From Deltaproteobacteria bacterium (GTDB taxonomy: Bacteria; Myxococcota_A; UBA9042; DTJE01), in NCBI GenBank assembly GCA_029555025.1, contig JAKPTZ010000004.1:3373-67372 (forward strand): a stretch of DNA of 64,000 nucleotides, read 5' to 3'. The notes beneath the pieces are model-generated. The model was not told the DNA's origin. It ran no database searches and saw nothing but the letters and a program-made list of their open reading frames with translations. Position numbers and translations under genes: made by a program. The first letter of the stretch is position 1; every line of letters begins with the position of its first letter. Of this stretch, positions 53,545-64,000 are shown piece after piece.

Positions 53545-55410
53545 GTGAGCTTAATGGCTGAAGGCATGTCGGGAATCGCTTGCGTCTGCGATCCTTCGAA
53601 CCGCGGCCGGTGGATGACGGCCTTTGAATCCGCCGGCGCGGGGCGGCTTGGAATCCGGGTCATCTTTCCCGGTTCCGGTTCTTTCGTTCCGGAACCTGGT
53701 CGATGGCTGGTTTTCCTGGATACGTGCCCGATTGGGATTGAGTCGATCCTGTCACGCTTTCCAATCGGGGACTCGACTGTTGCCACGGGCCTGCTGCGAT
53801 CGGCGCCCCCCGGCTTTCTTCCGTCAGGGCTTCCAATGTTCGCTGCCGACCGGATACGCGCGCTTCCACCATTCATTTCGGGCCGCTGGTTCCGCGCCAT
53901 CGCCTCGGCCGCGGCTCAGGGGCACATCGGCAGGCTGGCGGCACTTACCCTGCGTTTCGGTCCGGCCGAACACGAATCATCCCAGGATCCGGATTCTCCG
54001 GCAGCCCGCGCGGCGCTTGTCGTCAGCGGACTGACGGGACGGCGGATTCGTTTCAATGCATCCCGGTCAGGCGCCTCCGGTTCACCCGCGCTGGCCACCA
54101 GGCTTGAAGGCTCCATCGACGGGATTGATGTTCCGGTGTCCTTTGAAATCAATCCGGCGCCTGCCCCCCTGGTGGTGGAAGTCGTGGGAGTATCCGGCAG
54201 GATCATCGCGGTTCTCGACGGTTCGGGCGCCGACGTGATTCTCGAATCGGGATCCGGCCGCGACACGATCTTTCACGGACGCCTGAATCCGTTCGATGAC
54301 GCGGCATCGGCGATCGTTGCCGGCTTGTCCAGGAACTCGACGTCATTTTTCCCGCTTTCAACCGTCAACTCGGCCCTTGATTCACTTGCGGCGATGTCTG
54401 GCGCCGCATTCTCGACGTCATTGCCGGGTATCCGGACGGGGAACATGCGGACGGACTTCATCGCGAACGACTTCACTTCGTCCGACGACGTTTCAACCGG
54501 TTCCGGGACGATTCGTGAATTGAAGGTCTTCGTTTCGGACGCATGCAATCTGAACTGTCCGTTCTGTTTCTCCCGCTCGCCCGAAAAGGCAGCCCCTTCG
54601 GTCGATAGCTTCCGGTCCGTCTTCAAGGACGCCGTCGCGGCCGGGTATGATTCCGCCCTGCTTTCCGGCGGCGAGCCGACACTCAATCCGGATCTTCGCG
54701 ATATCGTCGTCGCCGCCCGGAACGCGGGAATGCGTTTCGTGGGGATCGAAACGAACGCAATTCTTCTGGACACGCAGGGGGCGGCCGCCGAACTCGCATC
54801 GGCAGGACTTGACAGGGCACTTGTCTCCTTTCATTCGATGGATCCGGAAACGCTTGTCGCGCTCACCGGCTCGCGCACGTCGCTGCCAAGGGCCATCGGT
54901 GGTATCCGCGCTCTTCTTGATGCCGGAATCCAGGTCAACATCAACTGCGTGACCACCGCGTTGAATTACCGGGAGCTTCCGGAAATCACGACATTCCTTT
55001 CCGGGCTGCGTCCGGCAATCAGCCAGATGGTCCTCAGCTTCATGGCCGGCCTCGGTTCGGCCACGGATCACCCCGAACTCTATCCGCGGGTTTCAGACGC
55101 GGCTCCATTCCTCAGGCGGGCCATCGAAATCGCCTCGTCCTCCGGTATCGACGCGGTCATCCCTGGCCAGTGCGGCCTTCCCCAGTGCGTGCTTCCCGAC
55201 AAGCTAGATCGGTTCTGCAACCAGCAGCTCGCGACGGCATCCCCATCCTGGACGGCGCCGGCGCTGGAAGGAAAGGTCTTTGCAGCTTCCTGCACCGAAT
55301 GTCGTGTTCGCCGCTGGTGTTACGGAGTCTGGAAGGTATATGCGGACAGGCACGGACTGGAGGAATTCAGGCCGATCACTTCGACAGGTGTTTCCGGTAG
55401 CGCTCCATGA
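53545..55410 (+). CDS. Radical SAM domain protein with N-terminal domain of unknown function
   Basis: C-terminal half carries CNLNCPFC, GGEPT, and a terminal CTECRVRRWC. The core is paralogous to the protein at 40342-42003. About 300 aa of unassigned N-terminal domain. Confidence 0.7.
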   Translation: MSLMAEGMSGIACVCDPSNRGRWMTAFESAGAGRLGIRVIFPGSGSFVPEPGRWLVFLDTCPIGIESILSRFPIGDSTVATGLLRSAPPGFLPSGLPMFAADRIRALPPFISGRWFRAIASAAAQGHIGRLAALTLRFGPAEHESSQDPDSPAARAALVVSGLTGRRIRFNASRSGASGSPALATRLEGSIDGIDVPVSFEINPAPAPLVVEVVGVSGRIIAVLDGSGADVILESGSGRDTIFHGRLNPFDDAASAIVAGLSRNSTSFFPLSTVNSALDSLAAMSGAAFSTSLPGIRTGNMRTDFIANDFTSSDDVSTGSGTIRELKVFVSDACNLNCPFCFSRSPEKAAPSVDSFRSVFKDAVAAGYDSALLSGGEPTLNPDLRDIVVAARNAGMRFVGIETNAILLDTQGAAAELASAGLDRALVSFHSMDPETLVALTGSRTSLPRAIGGIRALLDAGIQVNINCVTTALNYRELPEITTFLSGLRPAISQMVLSFMAGLGSATDHPELYPRVSDAAPFLRRAIEIASSSGIDAVIPGQCGLPQCVLPDKLDRFCNQQLATASPSWTAPALEGKVFAASCTECRVRRWCYGVWKVYADRHGLEEFRPITSTGVSGSAP

Positions 55411-56182
55411 CCCTGGCCACATAGTTTTCACATGACCTCGGGACGACGTTGCCGGCCTTCTGCACGTTGCCTGCGCCGGTGTAGTACGCCGCGATCACAA
55501 GTTCATGATTGCCGTCGAAACGATCCGAAAGAAGACGCAGCAGCTTGGCGCCGGCCCTGACGTTCTGTTCAGGATCGAACGGGTTGTCCAGATTCAGATA
55601 ATCGGCGGTAACCGGCATCAACTGCATCAGGCCCTGGGCGCCGACAGGCGAGACCACATCGGGATTGAACCCGGATTCGACCTCGATTACCGCGTACAGA
55701 AGCGCCTCCGGAATTCCGAATTCGGCGGCGGCGGCCTTCACCATCCGATCGAGTCCCTCCACCCTTTCCGGGCCACGCTTTGAAGGACCGGGCACGATCT
55801 CCTCGGATGAAACGACGCGACGAACCTGGGCCGACGAACCGCCGCCGGACGCAGCCGAATCCTGCCGCCCGCCGCTGCCTGACTGTTCGTCCTCGGTGCG
55901 GTTGAATATGTACCAGACGCCATTCTTTTCGCACTTGTAAAAGACCGAGTTCCGGTATCTCTGCACGACGCACTTCGAGCCCTTCGGTTTTGACGGCTGG
56001 GCGTTGAAATCAAGATAGACCGAGCACTTCTGGCCGGGCTGCTTCTGGTTGAAAAAGCCCTTCACGCCGTCCTTGCCGACGCACTCGTAGAAGGTATCTG
56101 CCCGCGCCGCGCCCTGCGCGCACAAGGCGACCGCGAAGACGAGGACGAAGGCCGTCGGCCAGACCGGTCTCCCCCGGGTCAT
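55376..56182 (-). CDS. Lytic transglycosylase (SLT domain) with N-terminal DUF4124-like domain
   Basis: Signal peptide MTRGRPVWPTAFVLVFAVALCAQGA. SLT catalytic motif EVESGFNPDVVSPVGAQGLMQLMP. Confidence 0.8.
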   Translation of the reverse strand: MTRGRPVWPTAFVLVFAVALCAQGAARADTFYECVGKDGVKGFFNQKQPGQKCSVYLDFNAQPSKPKGSKCVVQRYRNSVFYKCEKNGVWYIFNRTEDEQSGSGGRQDSAASGGGSSAQVRRVVSSEEIVPGPSKRGPERVEGLDRMVKAAAAEFGIPEALLYAVIEVESGFNPDVVSPVGAQGLMQLMPVTADYLNLDNPFDPEQNVRAGAKLLRLLSDRFDGNHELVIAAYYTGAGNVQKAGNVVPRSCENYVARVMERYRKHLSK

Positions 56183-56183
56183 G

Positions 56184-57308
56184 TCAGTTCCTTTCCCCAC
56201 CGGTGCCCTCAATGTCGTTCAATCCGATTGCAAACGCCTTCCGGAAGGAAACCTGGCCCTTCAGGATGAACCATCCGCCAAAAATCAGGAGCTGGAGCAA
56301 TTGAAGCGTCCACACCGTAAGCGCATAGGCCAGGCCCGCGGGGTTTCCCGCCTCGATGCCGTAAAGCTCCATCGGCTTCAGAAGAAAGTACCAGAAAGAC
56401 CCGATGTTGGCCGGAGCATTCGGAATCATCATCCCGACCACGATCGTTGACATCATCGCGAACGCTCCGATCAGGGGCACGCCCAGCGGAACCCAACCCG
56501 CGCTCGAATTCACCTGGAAACCGCTTGCCAGCAGGAACAGCCCGAAGCCGTTCGAGCACCAGTAGGCAAGCGACATCAGAAGAAACAGAAGAAAGTTCTT
56601 GAAGTCGGGAAATACCGACAGTCCGAACATGAATCGATCGACCATCCCGGCAATCCTGCTTGCCGCCCCGGTTCCCGGAAACCTGCCGGCCATGCCGTGG
56701 ATCACGACCGACAGCCTCTTGCGGAAGGCAAACATCAGGATAAGGACGGTGACCGCCACACCGAAAATCACGAGCGTGATATACGTTCCGATCCTGATTT
56801 CCAGATATGAATCCAGGTTCGACTTCGGCATGAAGAGCAGTGCCACCGCAAGGAATCCGGCGACGATGATCCCATCGACCACCCTTTCAACAACGATCGT
56901 CGCCAGCGCGGCCGATCTTCGGATGGGTGCCTCGGTGGATACAAGCATCGGACGAACCAGTTCGCCAAGACGCATCGGAAGCAGGAACACCGCCATGTTT
57001 CCGACGGAACAGACCCGGTTCAGGGTCCAGAAATCGACGTGTCCCAACGGTTTCAGCAAAGGCTGCCACCGCCAGAACCTGAACAGGTGCAAGGAAAGAA
57101 GAGTCAGGAAATAAAGGAACAGAGTCAGGAACGATACGCGCCAGCCGTCGGTGGTAATCATTCCGTCGGCAATTCGGATCCCCCCGGCGGCGATTGATTC
57201 CACCGGCCAGTCCCGGAATGCCAGCCACACGAAAAGACCACCTATGGCGACCGAAACCGCCCACTTCAAACCCGTATTGAATTTCCTTCTGGCAGTGCCC
57301 ATCTTCAC
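56184..57308 (-). CDS. UPF0104 / LPG-synthase-TM (flippase-like) family membrane protein
   Basis: Eight or more predicted TM helices. Family resemblance to the MprF N-terminal domain, including the conserved LP.RLGEL.RP segment. Confidence 0.65.
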   Translation of the reverse strand: MKMGTARRKFNTGLKWAVSVAIGGLFVWLAFRDWPVESIAAGGIRIADGMITTDGWRVSFLTLFLYFLTLLSLHLFRFWRWQPLLKPLGHVDFWTLNRVCSVGNMAVFLLPMRLGELVRPMLVSTEAPIRRSAALATIVVERVVDGIIVAGFLAVALLFMPKSNLDSYLEIRIGTYITLVIFGVAVTVLILMFAFRKRLSVVIHGMAGRFPGTGAASRIAGMVDRFMFGLSVFPDFKNFLLFLLMSLAYWCSNGFGLFLLASGFQVNSSAGWVPLGVPLIGAFAMMSTIVVGMMIPNAPANIGSFWYFLLKPMELYGIEAGNPAGLAYALTVWTLQLLQLLIFGGWFILKGQVSFRKAFAIGLNDIEGTGGERN

Positions 57309-57335
57309 CAGTCAAGGCGTGGCGCCCGGCTCCGG

Positions 57336-57887
57336 TCAATCCTTCTCCCCGGGCTTAACCGGATTCACGTCATCGCCGTCAATGTCGTTCTTGCCGATGT
57401 CGCTGTTTGCGCCCATCTGCTTCGTGTCGAGAATCTCGGACTTGACCAGGATCCACTTGCGGTTGCGAACCTTCCAGTGTTCGCGGTACTGCTTCTTTTC
57501 AATCGTGATCGAGTTGTCCCGGCGAACGCTAGCCTTGACCACTGCAATGGCCTCCTCCTCGCCCGTCTTGCGCCCGGGAAGATAGCGCACCGACATCAGT
57601 GTGAAATCTTCCCACAGATAGACGTTACGTTCCGGGTCGTGCCGGGATAGAAAATCGTCGATGTGATCGCGATCGACGTATGCGGCGGCTCGCTGAATCT
57701 CGCCCGATGTCAGGTGGATGTGGTAGTAGCTCAAGGTCTGATCAAGGCGATCGACGGTGCTCATCTGCTGCCCGCAGCCGCCCATTCCGGCCAGCGCCGC
57801 CAGCGAGACCGCGGCGAGGCAGATGACCACAAGAACCCTCGCCACCGGCGTCAACCATCGTGGGGCACTGTTCCGACCGCGGTTCAT
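57336..57887 (-). CDS. Hypothetical lipoprotein
   Basis: Signal peptide VARVLVVICLAAVSLAALAGMGGC. GGAG RBS before the ATG at 57887. Confidence 0.5.
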   Translation of the reverse strand: MNRGRNSAPRWLTPVARVLVVICLAAVSLAALAGMGGCGQQMSTVDRLDQTLSYYHIHLTSGEIQRAAAYVDRDHIDDFLSRHDPERNVYLWEDFTLMSVRYLPGRKTGEEEAIAVVKASVRRDNSITIEKKQYREHWKVRNRKWILVKSEILDTKQMGANSDIGKNDIDGDDVNPVKPGEKD

Positions 57888-58057
57888 TCGATTTCTCCAG
57901 TCCGTCAACCAGACGGGCGAAAGATTAACATCCCGGCGGGTCTGATGCAAAGCCGCTTGCACGCGCCCATTCACCTTGAATCACAGGAACATCCGTGTTT
58001 GTACTTGAAAACAGCCGGCGGGGAACCAATAATTCAGCCCGACGGAGGTGGTCATCG

Positions 58058-58465
58058 ATGAAAATTGCTGTCGCCACATCGAACGGCAACATACTTGCTT
58101 CCGGCGAGCCCTCTACCGCCCGCGGCTTCGTAATCTACGAGGTGGCCTTCGGCACGGCCCGCCGCGTCGAGTTCCGCCCCAACCGGCGCGGACACCGCAG
58201 CGCAGTGTCCGACGTTCGAGCCCGCGACATCGGGCATACGCTGTCCGACTGCGCCATGATCCTTGCCGGCGCGGTCAGCGCGCACACCCGGGACTACCTT
58301 GAGAATACCGGCATCGAAGTCGTCATAACGGACGAAACCATTGTGGACAGGGCCGCGGCCCTTCTTGCGCTTAACCAGCTTCCCGACCAGTCCAGGGTCG
58401 ATCCCGAAGACCTTGAAATCAGGCAGGGCGAACCTGTCGTGTTCGAGGATGGATTCGATGCCTGA
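58058..58465 (+). CDS. NifX/NifB-type dinitrogenase FeMo-cofactor-binding-domain protein
   Basis: MKIAVATSNGNIL...GFVIYEV pattern of the DUF/NifX-NifB family. GGAGG RBS. Its stop overlaps the start of the downstream ABC ATPase gene. Confidence 0.65.
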   Translation: MKIAVATSNGNILASGEPSTARGFVIYEVAFGTARRVEFRPNRRGHRSAVSDVRARDIGHTLSDCAMILAGAVSAHTRDYLENTGIEVVITDETIVDRAAALLALNQLPDQSRVDPEDLEIRQGEPVVFEDGFDA

Positions 58466-59216
58466 TCCGGCTGTCGATCTTTCGGGTGTTCATGTCCGGT
58501 TCAACGATCGCACCATCCTTCAGGACTGCAATTTAAGACTCGGGGCCGGCCTGATTCACGGCATTGTCGGCTCCGGCGGCTCCGGCCGTTCGACCCTGCT
58601 TAAGGTTATCGGCACCGTCATTCCGGCGGACGCCGGGCGAGTAACCATCCTTGGGCACGACATTGATCAGTGTGGCGGGGATGTCCTGGCGTCGATCCGA
58701 TCCCGGATTGGTTTCCAATTCCAGAATCTTGCTCTCTTCGACTCATTCGACGTGATTGACAACGTCTTGTTCGCCGTGACCGGCGGTGATCCCGACGGGG
58801 CCGAAGTCGCCGACCGGGAGCGCGCCGTTGAACTGTTGGATTCCGTCGGGCTTGGCGACTTTCTGCATCGGCATGCCGGGCAGTTGTCCGGCGGCATGCA
58901 GCGCCGGCTTGCCATTGCCCGAGCCTTCGCGCCGCGCCAGGCCATGCTCCACATCTTCGATGATCCGGTCGCCGGCCTCGACCCGGTGACATCTTCGAGA
59001 ATCCTCGGATTGATTGCGTCTCGCTGCAGATCCGGCACTGGCACGACCGCCGTCATCTCCACCCATGAGATAGACGCTCTTTTGGCGATATGCGACCTTG
59101 TTCATGTTATACATCAGGGGTCGATCATCTTTTCGGGTACCCCGGCGCAGGCAGTCGGCAATCGACAGGAAGTGGTGGCCCGCCTTTTCCGGGATCCGGT
59201 TCTTCATCGCGGCTGA
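58458..59216 (+). CDS. ABC transporter ATP-binding protein (MlaF-like), degenerate Walker A/B, intact signature
   Basis: Walker A GSGGSGRST (Lys replaced by Arg). Q-loop. Signature LSGGMQRR. Walker B IFDDPVAGLD (Glu replaced by Asp). H-loop STHEID. Confidence 0.8.
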   Translation: MPDPAVDLSGVHVRFNDRTILQDCNLRLGAGLIHGIVGSGGSGRSTLLKVIGTVIPADAGRVTILGHDIDQCGGDVLASIRSRIGFQFQNLALFDSFDVIDNVLFAVTGGDPDGAEVADRERAVELLDSVGLGDFLHRHAGQLSGGMQRRLAIARAFAPRQAMLHIFDDPVAGLDPVTSSRILGLIASRCRSGTGTTAVISTHEIDALLAICDLVHVIHQGSIIFSGTPAQAVGNRQEVVARLFRDPVLHRG

Positions 59217-59230
59217 ATTTGGGCTGGGGA

Positions 59231-59989
59231 ATGGGATTGACCAGCAATGCGGCAACAACGGTTCTTGAAACGACCGGCGCGATGGCCGTTACTTCGTGGA
59301 CGGCGTTGACCGCGCTTGTCCGTGGGCGTGCCGGTCGTCGCCAGGCTCTTCGCCAGATTGCAATCGTGAGTGTCGATTCCCTTCCGGTACTTGTCCTGAT
59401 TTCACTTCTTTCCGGCTTCGTGATGGTGCTTGAATCGGCAAGTTACGTCGAATCGCTCGGGGCGTTCAGTCTGATGGGATGGGCCTTCGGGCTGGTCACC
59501 CTCTCGCAGTTGGGCCCTGTCCTGGTGGCCCTGATGTTCGCAGCGCGCGCCGGTGCGCGAACGACGGCGGAACTGGGCGCCATGGCCGTTACCGGCCAAC
59601 TCGACGCGTTGCGACTGCTCGGGATCGATCCGGTCGGGTACCTCGCGGCCCCAAGGTTCCTGGCGATGATTGTTATGCTTCCCCTGATGACGGCGCTCTG
59701 CGACGCGATTGCGATCGGGGCGGGTGCCGTCGGGGCGGCGGTGGTCGTCGGTCTTGGCCCCGCGCTCTTCCTCCAGTCGATTGCTCAGGGCGGGCTGATG
59801 GATGAGTTCCTTCTGGGGATCGCCCGCACCTTTCTTTTTGGCGGGGCGATCGCCGCGGTTTCCTGCACATTCGGCTTCCGGGTTCGCGGCGGGGCCGCCG
59901 GCGCGGGCCGGGCGGTCAACGACTGCGTTGTGGTGTCGGCACTTGCCGTGTTTGTGATTGACCTGATTTTTACTATTGCCGTGCTTTAA
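59231..59989 (+). CDS. MlaE-family ABC permease (copy 1)
   Basis: About 250 aa with the MlaE/YrbE topology and family signature (VLVALMFAARAG..AELGAMAVTGQLDAL). Confidence 0.8.
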   Translation: MGLTSNAATTVLETTGAMAVTSWTALTALVRGRAGRRQALRQIAIVSVDSLPVLVLISLLSGFVMVLESASYVESLGAFSLMGWAFGLVTLSQLGPVLVALMFAARAGARTTAELGAMAVTGQLDALRLLGIDPVGYLAAPRFLAMIVMLPLMTALCDAIAIGAGAVGAAVVVGLGPALFLQSIAQGGLMDEFLLGIARTFLFGGAIAAVSCTFGFRVRGGAAGAGRAVNDCVVVSALAVFVIDLIFTIAVL

Positions 59990-59996
59990 GGGAAAC

Positions 59997-60731
59997 GTGA
60001 ATCGACGCGTGAACGAAATCGGGCTGTTGATTCAGGCCATCGTCGCGATGACGCGCCGTCCGCCGCCGCTTCGTCGCATTGTCCGCGAGGTGTTTTCCTG
60101 CGGCAATCGTTCGATCGTGTTCGTGTGCGTGACCATGGCCTTCTTCGGGATGATTCTTGTCTATGAAGGGTGCATGCAGGCACTGGCGTTGATTCCGGAT
60201 CTTTCATCCGCCGGCCCGGCGACCATCCGTTCAACAATCCGCGTTTTCGGCCCGCTGATGGCCGGCCTGATGGTTTCATTCCGCGTCGGGGCCGGTATCG
60301 CCGCCGAGGCCGGAACAATGGTGGTAACCGAACAGGACGGGGCGCTGCTGGTTTCCGGGTCGAGCCCGGCTGAATGGCTTGTGGCGCCGCGCCTTGTCGC
60401 GTGCATCATCGCCGTTCCCGCGCTGACGGTGGTCGGCTGTCTCGCCGGAATCCTGGCCGGCGGCGCCCTTGGGGTGGGCTGGTTCGGGATTCACCCATCG
60501 GATTTTTTCAGCCTCTCGATGGTGGATCGCGGCGACGCCGCCGTATGCGCGGCCAAGTCGCTGTTGAACGGCATGGCCATTCCCGTGTTTGCCGCCGCCG
60601 CCGGGCTGAACACCCGCGGCGGTTCGGAAGGTGTCGGCGTGGCGGCGACAAGCGCCGTTGTTCGATCCTGCGTGGCTGTCGCCGTGATTGAATTCCTGGT
60701 TTCGACGGTCGCCCGGGTCGCCGGGGCATAA
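59997..60731 (+). CDS. MlaE-family ABC permease (copy 2)
   Basis: Paralogue of the upstream permease (GPLMAGLMVSFRVGAGIAAEAGTMVVTEQ). GTG start at 59997 with an AAGGGA RBS, chosen to avoid overlap. Confidence 0.75.
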   Translation: MNRRVNEIGLLIQAIVAMTRRPPPLRRIVREVFSCGNRSIVFVCVTMAFFGMILVYEGCMQALALIPDLSSAGPATIRSTIRVFGPLMAGLMVSFRVGAGIAAEAGTMVVTEQDGALLVSGSSPAEWLVAPRLVACIIAVPALTVVGCLAGILAGGALGVGWFGIHPSDFFSLSMVDRGDAAVCAAKSLLNGMAIPVFAAAAGLNTRGGSEGVGVAATSAVVRSCVAVAVIEFLVSTVARVAGA

Positions 60732-60822
60732 GGCCGCTGGGTCTTGTTCGGATGGCGCGTTTGTCACGGATCCGGTGGATGATGCCGAGTTCCCCACCGG
60801 TTCCTGTGTTACGGAGATACTG

Positions 60823-61620
60823 ATGGCAGCCAGCGACGCGGAAGCAATCGCAATCGACATCCAGGATGTCGGGCGTTCGTTCGGTTCCCAACGGGTTCTT
60901 GATCGGGTATCCACGCGTTTCATGACCGGGCGCGCCACTTTCGTGGTCGGTCCCAGCGGTTGTGGGAAGTCCCTTCTGATGAAGATGCTCGTCGGGCTCG
61001 AGACACCCGATTCCGGAAGAATCCTGGTCTTCGGCAAGCATGTCGCGACCATGAATGCCGCCGAACTGAACGGCCTTCGCCGAAGGGTGGCCTTCGTTCC
61101 GCAGCACCCGGCTCTTTTCGACTCGTTGACCGTCGGCGCCAATATCGCCCTGCCCCTGGTTTTCCACCGGATCCAGGACGAGGCCGCGGCCCGCTCGACG
61201 GCCGTTCGTCTTCTGTCACTGTTCAACCTTGCCGACCGCGCCGACCTGTTGCCTGGCCAGATCAACCAGTCGGACAGGAAGATTGTCTCCATTCTTCGCT
61301 CGATGGCATGCGGGCCCGAATGCCTGGTGCTTGACGAGCCCACCACCGGCCTTGATTCTCCGTCAAGAGACGCCGTGTTCTCGATGATCCGGGAAATCGG
61401 CATGGTCGATTCCGGCATCGAAACCCTGATAGTTGTTTCACACGACATGCAATCAACCATGGCGATTGCCGACCGCATTGTCTTTCTGTATAAGGGTGTG
61501 GTTCGGCACGACACGTCCCCGGCCGGCTTCCTGACGGCGACGGCGACGGATCCGATCGCGGCCCAATTCCTTGCCGGGGCCGCGGATGGACCGATGAACA
61601 CAGAGGCTGACGAAGCATGA
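60823..61620 (+). CDS. ABC transporter ATP-binding protein, canonical Walker A/B, degenerate signature
   Basis: Walker A GPSGCGKS. Walker B LVLDEPTTGLD. H-loop VSHDM. Signature replaced by QINQSD. Confidence 0.8.
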   Translation: MAASDAEAIAIDIQDVGRSFGSQRVLDRVSTRFMTGRATFVVGPSGCGKSLLMKMLVGLETPDSGRILVFGKHVATMNAAELNGLRRRVAFVPQHPALFDSLTVGANIALPLVFHRIQDEAAARSTAVRLLSLFNLADRADLLPGQINQSDRKIVSILRSMACGPECLVLDEPTTGLDSPSRDAVFSMIREIGMVDSGIETLIVVSHDMQSTMAIADRIVFLYKGVVRHDTSPAGFLTATATDPIAAQFLAGAADGPMNTEADEA

Positions 61621-62606
61621 ACGAACGAACCAGGATGGAAATCAAGGTCGGGGCACTGGTTCTGGTCTCGGTCGCCGCCATCCTTGGATTCGTGGCGGTT
61701 CTGGGGAACTTCAGCTTCGGGCCAAGACAGGAATTCTTCGTCGATTTCGATCACTCCGGCGGCCTGAAGAAAGGCGCGCCAGTTCTTCTTGCCGGCGTCA
61801 ACATCGGCCAGGTCGAGTCCATCACGCTTCACCGCAATGAACTCGGCGTGCCCGAAAGCATCGGGCGCCCCAGGGTTCGCGTTTCGGCATCGGTTCCGTC
61901 GGATCAATTCGCGGCTATTCCATCTGACGTTTTCGCATCCATTTCGGCCCGCAGCGTGCTTGGCGAGAAGCATCTGGAACTGACGCCGGGCAACGGCGCC
62001 GTGCCGCCGCTGAAGGCCGGAACGGTTCTCCAGGGACGTCCGCCCGCCGGCATCGAGAAGGCCGGGGACGACGCGGTTTCGCTGATTCGTCGCCTTGAGA
62101 GGTTCATGGACGAAAACGAGGGAAAGCTTTCGGGCGCAATCGTCCAGGTTAACGACCTCGCTACGGGCTTGAACGCCTTTCTCAAGCTCAACGGCCCGAA
62201 GCTCGATGAGGCTGTCGAGAACCTGCGCCTTGCTTCTGCGGGACTTGCCCGGGAGGCAGGTCCCGGTGGGCGGGTCTCCAGCCTGATGATAACAGCCGAC
62301 CGCGTTGTGAAGCGGATCGATGCCGCAACCGCCGGCACCGAGAAGTCGGTTCCGGAACTCATCGCGGACGTTTCCAGGCTCTCGGCCAGGGCGGATCATC
62401 TTCTTGCAGGGATGGATCGGCTCGTCACAGAGATGACCGGACCGACAGTCGGCGCTGTCAGGAACCTCAACGACATCAGCGAGACGATAAGCCAGGGCAA
62501 GGGAACCATCGGAAAGCTTGTTCTGGATCAGACGCTGTATGACGACGTTTCGGCGTTCGTAAAGGAAATTAAGGCCAAGCCATGGAAGCTGCTGTGGAAG
62601 AAATGA
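61617..62606 (+). CDS. MlaD/MCE-family periplasmic substrate-binding protein
   Basis: N-terminal TM helix, then the MCE domain (EFFVDFDHSGGLKKGAPVLLAGVNIGQVESI). Overlaps the ATPase stop. Confidence 0.85.
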   Translation: MNERTRMEIKVGALVLVSVAAILGFVAVLGNFSFGPRQEFFVDFDHSGGLKKGAPVLLAGVNIGQVESITLHRNELGVPESIGRPRVRVSASVPSDQFAAIPSDVFASISARSVLGEKHLELTPGNGAVPPLKAGTVLQGRPPAGIEKAGDDAVSLIRRLERFMDENEGKLSGAIVQVNDLATGLNAFLKLNGPKLDEAVENLRLASAGLAREAGPGGRVSSLMITADRVVKRIDAATAGTEKSVPELIADVSRLSARADHLLAGMDRLVTEMTGPTVGAVRNLNDISETISQGKGTIGKLVLDQTLYDDVSAFVKEIKAKPWKLLWKK

Positions 62607-63358
62607 CGCGTCGGCGACTTGCGGCCGCATGCCTGACGGCGGCAATCCTTGTCGCCTCGCAGTTTCCGCAGATTTCCCCCGTCGTGGCCCAGGAAGCTGG
62701 CGGTGCCACCGGCCAGGCTGCGTTTACCCCACAGCAGGCCGCGGCTATCCTGTCCGCGGGCGACAAGGCATTTCGAACCGGCCGGGTGGGAGATGCGCTA
62801 AGGACATTCACGACCATATTCACGGTGTTTCCCACCTGGTGGATCGCCGGAGCCAAGGTCGCCGTGGCATCCGCGCAGTCCGGCCAGACCCCCGACGAAG
62901 TCGTTGCCGCGTTGAAAGCTCTTGTTCCAATGGGACCTACCGGGCCGTGGGTGCCGATGCTTGCCGTCATGGCCGCCGCATCCAGGCTTGCACAGGAAGA
63001 TGTTGAATTCATCAAGCACATGTCTCGTCAGATGCTGGCCGAGCCTCCCGAAGACGAGGCATATCTGATGCGAACCAGGGACGCCGACCTGCGCAGTCGC
63101 TATGCACTCGCACGGGGACTGGCTCTCGAGGCCGCCGGCCAGCCTGGAATGGCCGTCGCCGAGTACCGTGCCCTTTCCGAATCACGGCCTGGCGCGATTG
63201 CGCCGAGAGTCCGTCTTGCAGTCCTTCTTTCAGCGGTCGGGAGGCATGCCGACGCCGACGCGATACTGGCGCCAATCGAGCCTGTCAGCCTTATGTCATC
63301 TCGAATCCGCATGCTTCGGCAGCAGATCCGGGCCACAATCTCCCCGGATCCGCGCTGA
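62603..63358 (+). CDS. Secreted TPR-like hypothetical protein (last gene of the Mla-like cluster)
   Basis: ATGA overlap with the MCE gene. Signal-like N-terminus LAAACLTAAILVASQ. Helical repeats. Confidence 0.5.
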   Translation: MTRRRLAAACLTAAILVASQFPQISPVVAQEAGGATGQAAFTPQQAAAILSAGDKAFRTGRVGDALRTFTTIFTVFPTWWIAGAKVAVASAQSGQTPDEVVAALKALVPMGPTGPWVPMLAVMAAASRLAQEDVEFIKHMSRQMLAEPPEDEAYLMRTRDADLRSRYALARGLALEAAGQPGMAVAEYRALSESRPGAIAPRVRLAVLLSAVGRHADADAILAPIEPVSLMSSRIRMLRQQIRATISPDPR

Positions 63359-63551
63359 ATGTGATCTTTTCTGCCGAATTTTTGTCCGTTTCGATTTTTT
63401 TTGATTGACCTTATTCCAAGGTCTTTGCATTATACGGACGGCCTGAATGTTCATGCATTGCCGTTGAACAGGCTGCGATTGTCCGGCACCGCTTAAGATC
63501 GCGGATTTGCTGGAAATCGTATGAATCGGAACACGTTTGCGGGGACAGTGT

Positions 63552-64000
63552 CATGATAGTTGGACTCATTATCGCACTGGTCGGAGCGCTCGGCGGTCTC
63601 ATCGGCTCACTGGTTCTGCCCTGGGTCGATACGGACGCCGTCAAGTTCGCTGATCCATCGGCCTACGCCGGTTACGCGTGGCCAACTGGTGTGGTCGCGA
63701 TAATTCTTCTGGGCGCGGCGGTCGTGCTTGTCGGACTCAGCTTCGCCATGGAGCGCAAGAGGAAGCTGTTCGCCATCATTAATATGTTCGTGGCGCTCGG
63801 CGTTCTCGTGTTCTCCTTCCTGACCCCGTTCTCGATCCGCACGGCCATCAACGAAATGATCCTTGCGGGCACCATTCCCGAGGCCACCCGGCTTGCGATG
63901 TTCTATGGCTATCACGCCATATTCTTCGGCAACGTCGTGCTGGCATTCGGTTGCGCGTTCCTGCTTGGACAGGCCGGCTCCTACAGGACCGACGACAAGC
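63552..64000 (+). CDS. Hypothetical membrane protein (partial, runs off window end)
   Basis: ATG at 63552. Open frame to the window end with at least four hydrophobic helices (IVGLIIALVGALGG...). Confidence 0.4.

Follow-up and report, generated by a model that had tools for sequence, protein, structure and literature searches.

A Mla/MCE-type gene cluster with two complementary ATPases and two permeases points to an ABC lipid transporter with a single hydrolysing site

Mla/MCE transporters play a central part in the lipid homeostasis of the outer membrane and, in mycobacteria, in the import of nutrient lipids. To our knowledge, every characterized member is driven by a symmetric ATPase homodimer. 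Here we describe a seven-gene cluster from a Deltaproteobacteria bacterium (GenBank assembly GCA_029555025.1, contig JAKPTZ010000004.1, positions 3,373 to 67,372; this stretch of 64,000 nucleotides is called the window, and coordinates are counted from its first nucleotide), which encodes two distinct MlaF-like ATP-binding cassette (ABC) ATPases and two distinct MlaE-like permeases together with an MCE protein. The two ATPases carry complementary defects, and it is quite likely that they form an obligate asymmetric heterodimer, ATPase-1/ATPase-2, which would act as a motor with one hydrolysing site.

The presence of two ATPase and two permease genes, first proposed on reading the window (the original prediction), was borne out by profile searches. 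All seven genes lie on the + strand. The products of the ATPase-1 gene (58458-59216) and the ATPase-2 gene (60823-61620) matched ABC_tran (PF00005) with 93.1 and 86.8 bits for a cut-off of 25 (3e-26 and 2.7e-24, respectively), and every ABC motif position could be aligned in both, some with non-consensus residues. Between them, the MlaE-1 (59231-59989) and MlaE-2 (59997-60731) permeases matched MlaE (PF02405) with 189 and 153 bits for a cut-off of 22.5 (1e-55 and 1e-44). The MlaD family (PF02470) found a single MCE protein, encoded at 61617-62606 (59.5 bits for a cut-off of 25.1; 3.9e-16).

Alignment to solved ABC ATPases placed the Walker A sequence of ATPase-1, GSGGSGRST, on GESGSGKST, with Arg at the position of the Lys, and its Walker B sequence, HIFDDP, on IADEP, with Asp at the position of the catalytic Glu. 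The LSGGMQRR signature, the Q-loop Gln, the D-loop and the H-loop His (STHE) of ATPase-1 are intact. ATPase-2 shows the complementary pattern. Its Walker A (GPSGCGKS), Walker B (LVLDEP) and H-loop (SHD) are canonical, and its sequence QINQSDRK aligns to ELSGGMNRR of Acinetobacter baumannii MlaF, so that INQSD stands for LSGGM. A direct BLASTP comparison of the two ATPases (26% identity) gave the same motif register. The substitutions originally assigned to each protein thus stood, without mis-assignment. The best solved relatives of ATPase-2 are MlaF proteins (E = 1e-34). With 119.4 and 115.5 bits, ATPase-1 and ATPase-2 did not reach the cut-off of 441 of the MlaF equivalog NF008809; by sequence both are MlaF-like, and neither is an orthologue by the criterion of NCBI.

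We defined the ATPase families from homologue searches and motif tables, which yielded 58 sequences for ATPase-1, 18 for ATPase-2 and 102 for ordinary MlaF-like proteins. The signature and D-loop of ATPase-1 are 100% conserved across the 58 sequences, down to about 35% identity, with SGGM present in all of them. The catalytic position of Walker B is Asp in 55 and Glu in 3. In Walker A, Lys is found in 47 and Arg in 11, the Arg-type sequences representing the nearest subclade of the window (at least 50% identity). The H-loop residue is His in 42, Gln in 14 and another residue in 2; the Q-loop Gln is present in 51 and an aromatic A-loop residue in only 32. As for the ATPase-2 family, the Walker A Lys and the A-loop Phe are each found in 17 of 17 sequences (for Lys, the eighteenth lacks the region), and the Walker B Glu, H-loop His and Q-loop Gln in 18 of 18. 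A canonical signature is found in none of the 18: it reads LN[QAVI]SD in the subclade of the window, and VGPSE, VGPGE or LGVTE farther out. Among the ordinary MlaF-like proteins, the Walker A Lys, Walker B Glu and H-loop His are each present in 102 of 102, each signature position is canonical in 91 to 102 of them, and the A-loop residue is aromatic in 96. Judged by these counts, the motif deviations of both ATPases are a family-wide conserved feature, neither decay nor chance.

Paired MlaF genes are distributed as a fixed four-gene module in 12 independent loci. These comprise the locus of the window (L001-L003), L004, two loci from metagenome-assembled genomes (MAGs) of 'Deltaproteobacteria bacterium' (L005 and L006), one from an uncultured member of the Myxococcales (L029), one from an Oligoflexales MAG (L048), four from metagenomes (L085-L088), and two distant members (L089 and L090). 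The order ATPase-1, MlaE, MlaE, ATPase-2 is the same in 12 of 12, in at least five different genomic contexts, and the module was never split into separate pairs in the loci examined. In each of them, the first ATPase has the damaged catalytic half (Glu-to-Asp plus either Lys-to-Arg or His-to-Gln, or loss of the H-loop) and an intact LSGGM; in the second, the catalytic residues are intact and the signature is damaged. The partner signatures vary freely among loci (LNQSD, VGPSE, VAITE and VGPGM). At L088, ATPase-1 keeps the Glu and has the His-to-Gln change, and the partner signature is VAITE. ATPase-1 of L090 has no H-loop His (VAAGDPA), and its partner carries VGPGM; there, the module (L090:5346-10116) directly follows and overlaps a UbiB/ABC1-kinase gene, with no adjacent MCE gene. 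A scan of a genome collection with peptide patterns found the double type in 4 of 80 loci among the matches listed; about 75 other loci among them have the classical single MlaE and MlaF genes, most with an adjacent MlaD gene. The patterns are unspecific, and the genome of the window itself is not among the matches listed.

Strain variants of the window sequence, GCA_029564055.1 and a JGI metagenome contig, differ from it at 37 positions in 6 kb; NCBI gives the source as 'Myxococcota bacterium'. ATPase-1 has no difference, the two MlaE genes have nine synonymous and no non-synonymous differences, and ATPase-2 has eight synonymous and two non-synonymous ones. One of the latter, N148S, is inside the degenerate signature (residue 148, window positions 61264-61266), which reads INQSD in the window and ISQSD in both GCA_029564055.1 and the JGI contig. 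These differences show purifying selection. The polymorphism of the ATPase-2 signature between strains is consistent with relaxed constraint at that motif.

As the catalytic damage is in ATPase-1 and the signature damage in ATPase-2 in every locus, both map to one composite site, which consists of the P-loop, Walker B and H-loop of ATPase-1 and the signature of ATPase-2. An ATPase-1 homodimer would have both sites without the catalytic Glu and, in the window, without the Lys; an ATPase-2 homodimer would have both without a signature. An obligate heterodimer is the best explanation because either homodimer would contain two defective sites, and the heterodimer exactly one consensus site. The complementary defects, their recurrence in 12 loci and the invariance of the intact halves strongly support the prediction of one consensus and one non-hydrolytic site. 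In Escherichia coli, MlaF variants K47A and E170Q fail to complement an mlaF deletion (PMC7367683). The likeness to heterodimeric exporters that had been pointed out holds for PatAB, whose degenerate site combines a Walker B Asp and an H-loop Gln with a partner signature that departs from the consensus (PMC9541285). The logic and the residues are the same, with Glu-to-Asp and His-to-Gln changes in one subunit and an altered signature in the other.

We propose that the cluster encodes a type VIII-like Mla/MCE ABC transporter, for which we infer a lipid substrate and the direction of transport. MlaE-1 and MlaE-2 would make up a heterodimeric membrane domain, and the MCE protein a ring of identical subunits, presumably six, from which a helical needle reaches into the periplasm. 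A secreted tetratricopeptide repeat (TPR) protein and a cytoplasmic NifX-like protein, encoded at the two ends of the cluster, are candidate conserved accessory subunits. The consensus site, with Walker A, Walker B and H-loop from ATPase-2 and LSGGM from ATPase-1, would hydrolyse ATP normally, and the degenerate site, with the Arg and Asp Walker motifs of ATPase-1 and INQSD of ATPase-2, would not do so efficiently. Since most family members keep the Walker A Lys, nucleotide binding at the degenerate site is probably retained in these relatives, as in heterodimeric exporters, and the site would serve them as a clamp, structural or regulatory. In the subclade of the window, it may bind nucleotide only weakly; the Lys-to-Arg change and the stronger loss of the signature suggest further degeneration there.

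Alternatively, both sites might hydrolyse ATP, with Arg and Asp taking the roles of Lys and Glu and the signature region of ATPase-2 contacting ATP in a new way, so that the dimer would be functionally symmetric. Both substitutions keep the charge, and 47 of the 58 ATPase-1 family members retain the Walker A Lys. We nevertheless regard this as unlikely. The degenerate site is relaxed at the H-loop (Gln in 14 of 58, loss in L090) and at the A-loop (aromatic in 32 of 58), and the opposing signature varies freely, even between strains (N148S), which argues that catalytic constraint was lost, and against a new way of catalysis. Moreover, the non-hydrolysing site of PatAB carries these same changes (PMC9541285).

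The gene order can formally be read as two adjacent ATPase-permease pairs in mirror image, and classical Mla systems are homodimeric (PMC7367683). Two homodimeric half-systems, ATPase-1/MlaE-1 and ATPase-2/MlaE-2, might thus share one MCE ring or compete for it. This arrangement is improbable, as each homodimer would have two defective ATP sites and no examined locus has the four genes split into separate pairs. In addition, complementary defects in 12 of 12 loci, along with invariant intact halves, are expected only if the two ATPases pair with each other.

It is very improbable that ATPase-1 is a regulatory pseudo-ATPase acting elsewhere, for instance in a sensor module with the NifX-like protein, and that ATPase-2 pairs with an ATPase encoded outside the cluster. 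Such a division of labour would fit the translational coupling of the NifX-like gene to ATPase-1, and mycobacterial Mce systems do use an ATPase encoded outside the operon (PMC9882608). However, ATPase-1 keeps the elements of a partner nucleotide-binding domain (NBD), namely, LSGGM, the D-loop and, for docking to the membrane domain, the Q-loop Gln (51 of 58). The two permease paralogues match the two ATPases, and the 64-kb window has no ABC ATPase or MlaE gene beyond those of the cluster. Finally, there is next to no probability that ATPase-1 is a decaying relic and that ATPase-2 alone drives transport, even though ATPase-1 is missing the two residues on which hydrolysis most often depends. 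The ATPase-1 ORF (open reading frame) is intact and occupies the same place in 12 loci, and a homodimer of ATPase-2 would be without a functional signature. Pseudogene decay, named in the original prediction as a finding that would speak against it, is excluded because the signature and D-loop of ATPase-1 are conserved over 58 sequences and the gene is identical between strains with 37 differences in 6 kb.

Several points nevertheless weigh against the asymmetric heterodimer, or against the parts assigned to the other subunits. Both the assembly of the heterodimer and the asymmetry of the ATPases are predicted from sequence. The Lys-to-Arg and Glu-to-Asp changes are conservative, and residual activity could persist at the degenerate site. 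In a rough neighbour-joining tree, which is too coarse to date the ATPase duplication, the ATPase-2 family forms a clean clade within the MlaF-like proteins, and the ATPase-1 family is placed at the base, without forming one clean clade. All family members come from metagenomes or MAGs. AlphaFold2 models of the MCE protein, from a single sequence, and of the NifX-like protein, from six, are of low confidence (predicted local distance difference test [pLDDT] scores of 42.5 and 53, respectively). Lastly, the accessory roles of the NifX-like and TPR proteins are argued from conserved adjacency only.

MlaE-1 and MlaE-2 are 31% identical, in line with the paralogy that had been proposed for them. 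Neither reached the TIGR00056 subfamily cut-off of 212.2 (172 and 128 bits, respectively), and by these scores they are divergent members of the MlaE family. The best solved relative of MlaE-1 is Pseudomonas aeruginosa MlaE (7ch8_G; 3e-26). In all 10 loci compared, the best match is MlaE-1 for the first MlaE gene and MlaE-2 for the second, which indicates that each is orthologous across loci. The proposed likeness to the actinobacterial YrbEA/B pair calls for a caveat: the duplication looks independent, because both copies are nearer to proteobacterial MlaE than to YrbE and both match YrbE1A better than YrbE1B, so that neither shows a specific relationship to YrbEA or YrbEB. The two permeases presumably give each ATPase its own docking partner. 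Gene order, the only guide here, suggests that ATPase-1 sits on MlaE-1 and ATPase-2 on MlaE-2.

The MCE protein consists of an N-terminal transmembrane (TM) helix (hydrophobic segment at residues 5-36), one MCE domain, a helical region of about 200 residues and a conserved C terminus, KxHPWKLL. It scored below the cut-offs of the MlaD equivalog TIGR04430 (64 bits for 135) and of TIGR00996 (80.9 bits for 140.5), the latter match spanning residues 12-269. The best solved match of a profile built from nine orthologues is Mycobacterium smegmatis Mce1B (8fed_B; 283 residues, E = 2e-16). MlaD ranks behind it, with matches that span roughly the first 150 profile positions. Faint or weak precomputed matches of MCE proteins to Helical_needle (PF28544) are recurrent, and the AlphaFold2 model, weakly usable for its secondary-structure pattern only, has a TM helix and a beta-rich domain followed by about 150 helical residues. 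With one MCE gene, a homo-oligomeric ring and needle would be the simplest model.

The TPR protein matched TPR_19 (2.2e-6; 28.4 bits for a cut-off of 25). Its start had been placed at 62582. The ATG at 62603 is more likely, because it gives an ATGA overlap with the stop of the MCE gene and a signal peptide beginning MTRRR; the gene then spans 62603-63358. Orthologues have signal peptides and a conserved FPTWW motif, and the protein is a predicted secreted one. We also considered that it might be a lipoprotein and rejected this: its sole Cys is at the start of the hydrophobic region, and no lipobox was found in orthologues.

The first gene of the cluster, at 58058-58465, encodes the NifX-like protein of 135 residues, named NifB/NifX family protein by NCBI. 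It scored just below the cut-off of Nitro_FeMo-Co (PF02579; 25.7 bits for 26.3), and orthologues carry precomputed matches to this family. A profile of eight orthologues retrieved MTH1175 (1eo1; E = 1e-7) and NafY (1p90; 0.003). The protein thus likely has the fold of the NifX/NifB/NafY superfamily, and its organismal context gives no reason to expect a nitrogenase. Of the 11 loci with upstream sequence, 9 have its gene beside ATPase-1, eight times directly 5' on the same strand and once inverted (L085). A homologue search added little: it found six close relatives, all six on contigs with the ATPase pair.

In the orthologue alignment, an invariant 'DC' pair forms part of an LSDC-type motif. 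The family-specific C-terminal extension comprises an amphipathic helix, VDRAxALFAL, followed by a conserved acidic tail (...DESRxDPED...[DE][FY]D[AG]). This extension could be a docking motif, and by analogy the NifX-like protein may play an MlaB-like role toward the ATPase. No match to the STAS (MlaB), MlaC or MlaA families was found among the seven cluster proteins, which were the proteins searched.

The protein families are those of the solved MlaFEDB complexes (E. coli 6xbd, A. baumannii 7d06 and P. aeruginosa 7ch8), with the same MlaE, an MlaF-like LSGGM ATPase and a TM-anchored MlaD/MCE protein. In contrast, MlaFEDB has one ATPase gene and one permease gene, whose products form homodimers with two consensus sites, whereas here there are two of each and one site would be degenerate. 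MlaFEDB contains the STAS protein MlaB; the cluster has no MlaB, and the NifX-like gene occupies the equivalent operon position. The MCE protein is twice as long as in MlaFEDB, owing to its helical extension, and the cluster has no MlaC or MlaA gene. In NCBIfam searches, the cluster proteins are near MlaF, MlaE and MlaD, yet below every equivalog cut-off. On its gene content, the cluster is not a member of the E. coli-type Mla systems, because it has two ATPases and two permeases, lacks MlaB and misses the equivalog cut-offs.

Mycobacterial Mce1 and Mce4 systems (8fed) have a heterodimeric YrbEA/YrbEB permease, where the cluster has two MlaE paralogues as a presumed heterodimer. Helical 'needle' MCE proteins are common to both, here by the profile match to Mce1B. 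However, Mce1 relies on an MceG homodimer that is encoded elsewhere and shared, and on six different MCE genes (PMC9882608), whereas here the two ATPases are encoded within the operon and there is one MCE gene. By these features, the cluster is not an actinobacterial Mce-type member either.

TM287/288, TAP1/2, BmrCD and CFTR are of the heterodimeric type with one degenerate nucleotide-binding site. Likewise, two NBDs with defects on the same composite site were found in 12 of 12 loci. Heterodimeric exporters are type IV transporters with the transmembrane domain fused to the NBD and an unrelated membrane fold; in contrast, the NBDs here are separate proteins, combined with an MlaE-type domain and an MCE ring. 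The subclade of the window adds the Walker A Lys-to-Arg change, and INQSD is far more degenerate than the SAGQ-type variants of the exporters. The envelope lipid and lipoprotein machines LptB2FG and LolCDE have a heterodimeric membrane domain made of two paralogous permeases. Their ATPases, LptB and LolD, are homodimers with two consensus sites, and they belong to other fold classes, with no MCE component. The system thus appears as a cross of MlaFEDB (protein families and LSGGM ATPase), Mce (heterodimeric permease and needle MCE protein) and heterodimeric exporters (degenerate site). In the literature covered, which includes the phylogenomics paper on Veillonella Mla and is thin on subscription journals, we found neither paired MlaF genes nor MCE transporters with a degenerate ATP site described.

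A natural lineage with a built-in dead site would mean that a single hydrolysis site per cycle is probably enough for the Mla/MCE class, which would extend the ATP-site asymmetry of heterodimeric exporters to another ABC fold class. The system makes it possible to ask how much ATP is spent per lipid-transport step, what a non-hydrolysing site does, and how the ATPase and permease halves are matched; in the homodimeric MlaFEDB and MceG systems, the same questions require engineered heterodimers. As candidate accessory factors for MCE systems, the cluster offers its conserved NifX-like and TPR proteins and its link to a Tol/TonB-like motor, described below. These features are relevant to specialists of ABC transporters and of envelope lipids.

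A profile search of a representative library with ATPase-1 gave about eight clusters at 50% identity with the Walker B sequence 'DDP', a rough measure of family size because two-NBD proteins dominate the ranking. As far as these sequences go, the predicted asymmetric Mla/MCE family is small and occurs in uncultured Myxococcota-related and other lineages. Tandem-fused MlaF-like proteins of 546-581 residues with two NBDs (P0241-P0244, encoded outside the window) were also observed, together with an apparently shortened member of this group (P0246; 429 residues). Their NBD1 is canonical, and the signature of NBD2 is mildly altered (ISSGQ, VSAGE or ISNGE), with a D-loop reading TGQD in most of them. 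They may represent a second, independent route to an asymmetric Mla-type ATPase.

Within the cluster, the stop of the NifX-like gene and the start of ATPase-1 share 8 nucleotides, and the ATPase-2/MCE junction is an ATGA overlap. The genes overlap or abut, and their junctions are of the kind typical of coupled translation. The spacer between MlaE-2 and ATPase-2 (60732-60822; 91 nucleotides) is unusually long beside the otherwise overlapping genes. The ATG of ATPase-2 at 60823 is preceded by GGAG 7 nucleotides upstream, and is the start used by NCBI, for a protein of 265 residues. Some pipelines call a protein of 297 residues from the stop of MlaE-2, because of a 1-bp indel at 60738 in the spacer relative to sister assemblies. 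An MlaF-type C-terminal 'handshake' was sought in ATPase-2 and rejected: a QFLxGxxxGP stretch is present, and the terminal helix is absent.

Upstream of the first gene, the consensus search gave a sigma-70-like promoter match on the + strand (TTGAAA-17-AATAAT; 58005-58033), which is weak evidence, as two matches of the pattern were observed and 1.4 are expected in shuffled sequences. A terminator-like hairpin (63407-63423, +) follows the TPR gene and overlaps a second promoter-like site (63405-63433, +), both as pattern matches only. An Rfam search of positions 55000-64000 matched no RNA family.

The NifX-like, MCE and TPR genes assigned to the cluster by the original prediction are all present, and a part of that description that did not stand is the end of the cluster at the TPR gene, since the conserved cluster runs on past 63358. 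The next gene (63553-64000, +, running off the window) encodes a GltG-like TonB-family membrane protein of 589 residues, with matches to the AgmX/PglI C-terminal domain NF033768 (99 bits for a cut-off of 40) and to tonB_Cterm (29 for 27.1). It has four N-terminal TM helices, a fifth near residue 290, a Gly-rich linker and the AgmX/PglI C-terminal domain. In sister assemblies (L001:12827-16757), one TolQ/ExbB-like gene and two TolR/ExbD-like genes come after this gene. Eleven loci extend past the MCE-TPR part; the GltG/TolQ/TolR/TolR-like block stands 3' of it in 8 of these, also where the upstream context differs (L004, L088 and L048), and is absent from L087, L089 and L090. Across loci, identity is 70-90% for ExbB and 40-55% for the Mla parts. 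The promoter- and terminator-like sites between the TPR gene and the block suggest that the latter is on a separate transcript. Its linkage to the cluster might be functional or simply inherited synteny.

A more far-reaching proposal is that the degenerate site and the NifX-like protein coupled to ATPase-1 would form a regulatory input module that replaces MlaB and gates a single-site motor, with the MCE needle and the GltG/TolQ/TolR/TolR proteins as one trans-envelope machine. We consider it doubtful. If true, a small-molecule- or cofactor-binding NifX-like domain would stand in for the STAS protein MlaB, and the machine would physically link lipid trafficking driven by ATP and by proton motive force in Myxococcota.

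A gene for a HEAT-repeat protein of 714-718 residues, a few genes 3' of the TolR-like genes, is conserved in three loci (L001:18449-20605, L085:20288- and L086:20708-). Upstream of the cluster, a divergent block on the - strand occupies window positions 55376-57974 and continues to about 52472. It includes genes for a membrane protein of 183 residues with no assigned function (57339-57887, -), an LPG_synthase_TM/flippase-like protein (56187-57230, -) and a lytic transglycosylase SLT (55376-56212, -), and beyond the latter, BamD/YfiO-like and CarD-like genes. Synteny of the block extends to L085 and L086, and that of its first two genes also to L029, which points to an envelope-biogenesis neighbourhood. 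A radical-SAM protein of 621 residues with a long N-terminal extension is encoded at 53545-55410 on the + strand; its gene is absent in L085 and has the same position in L086.

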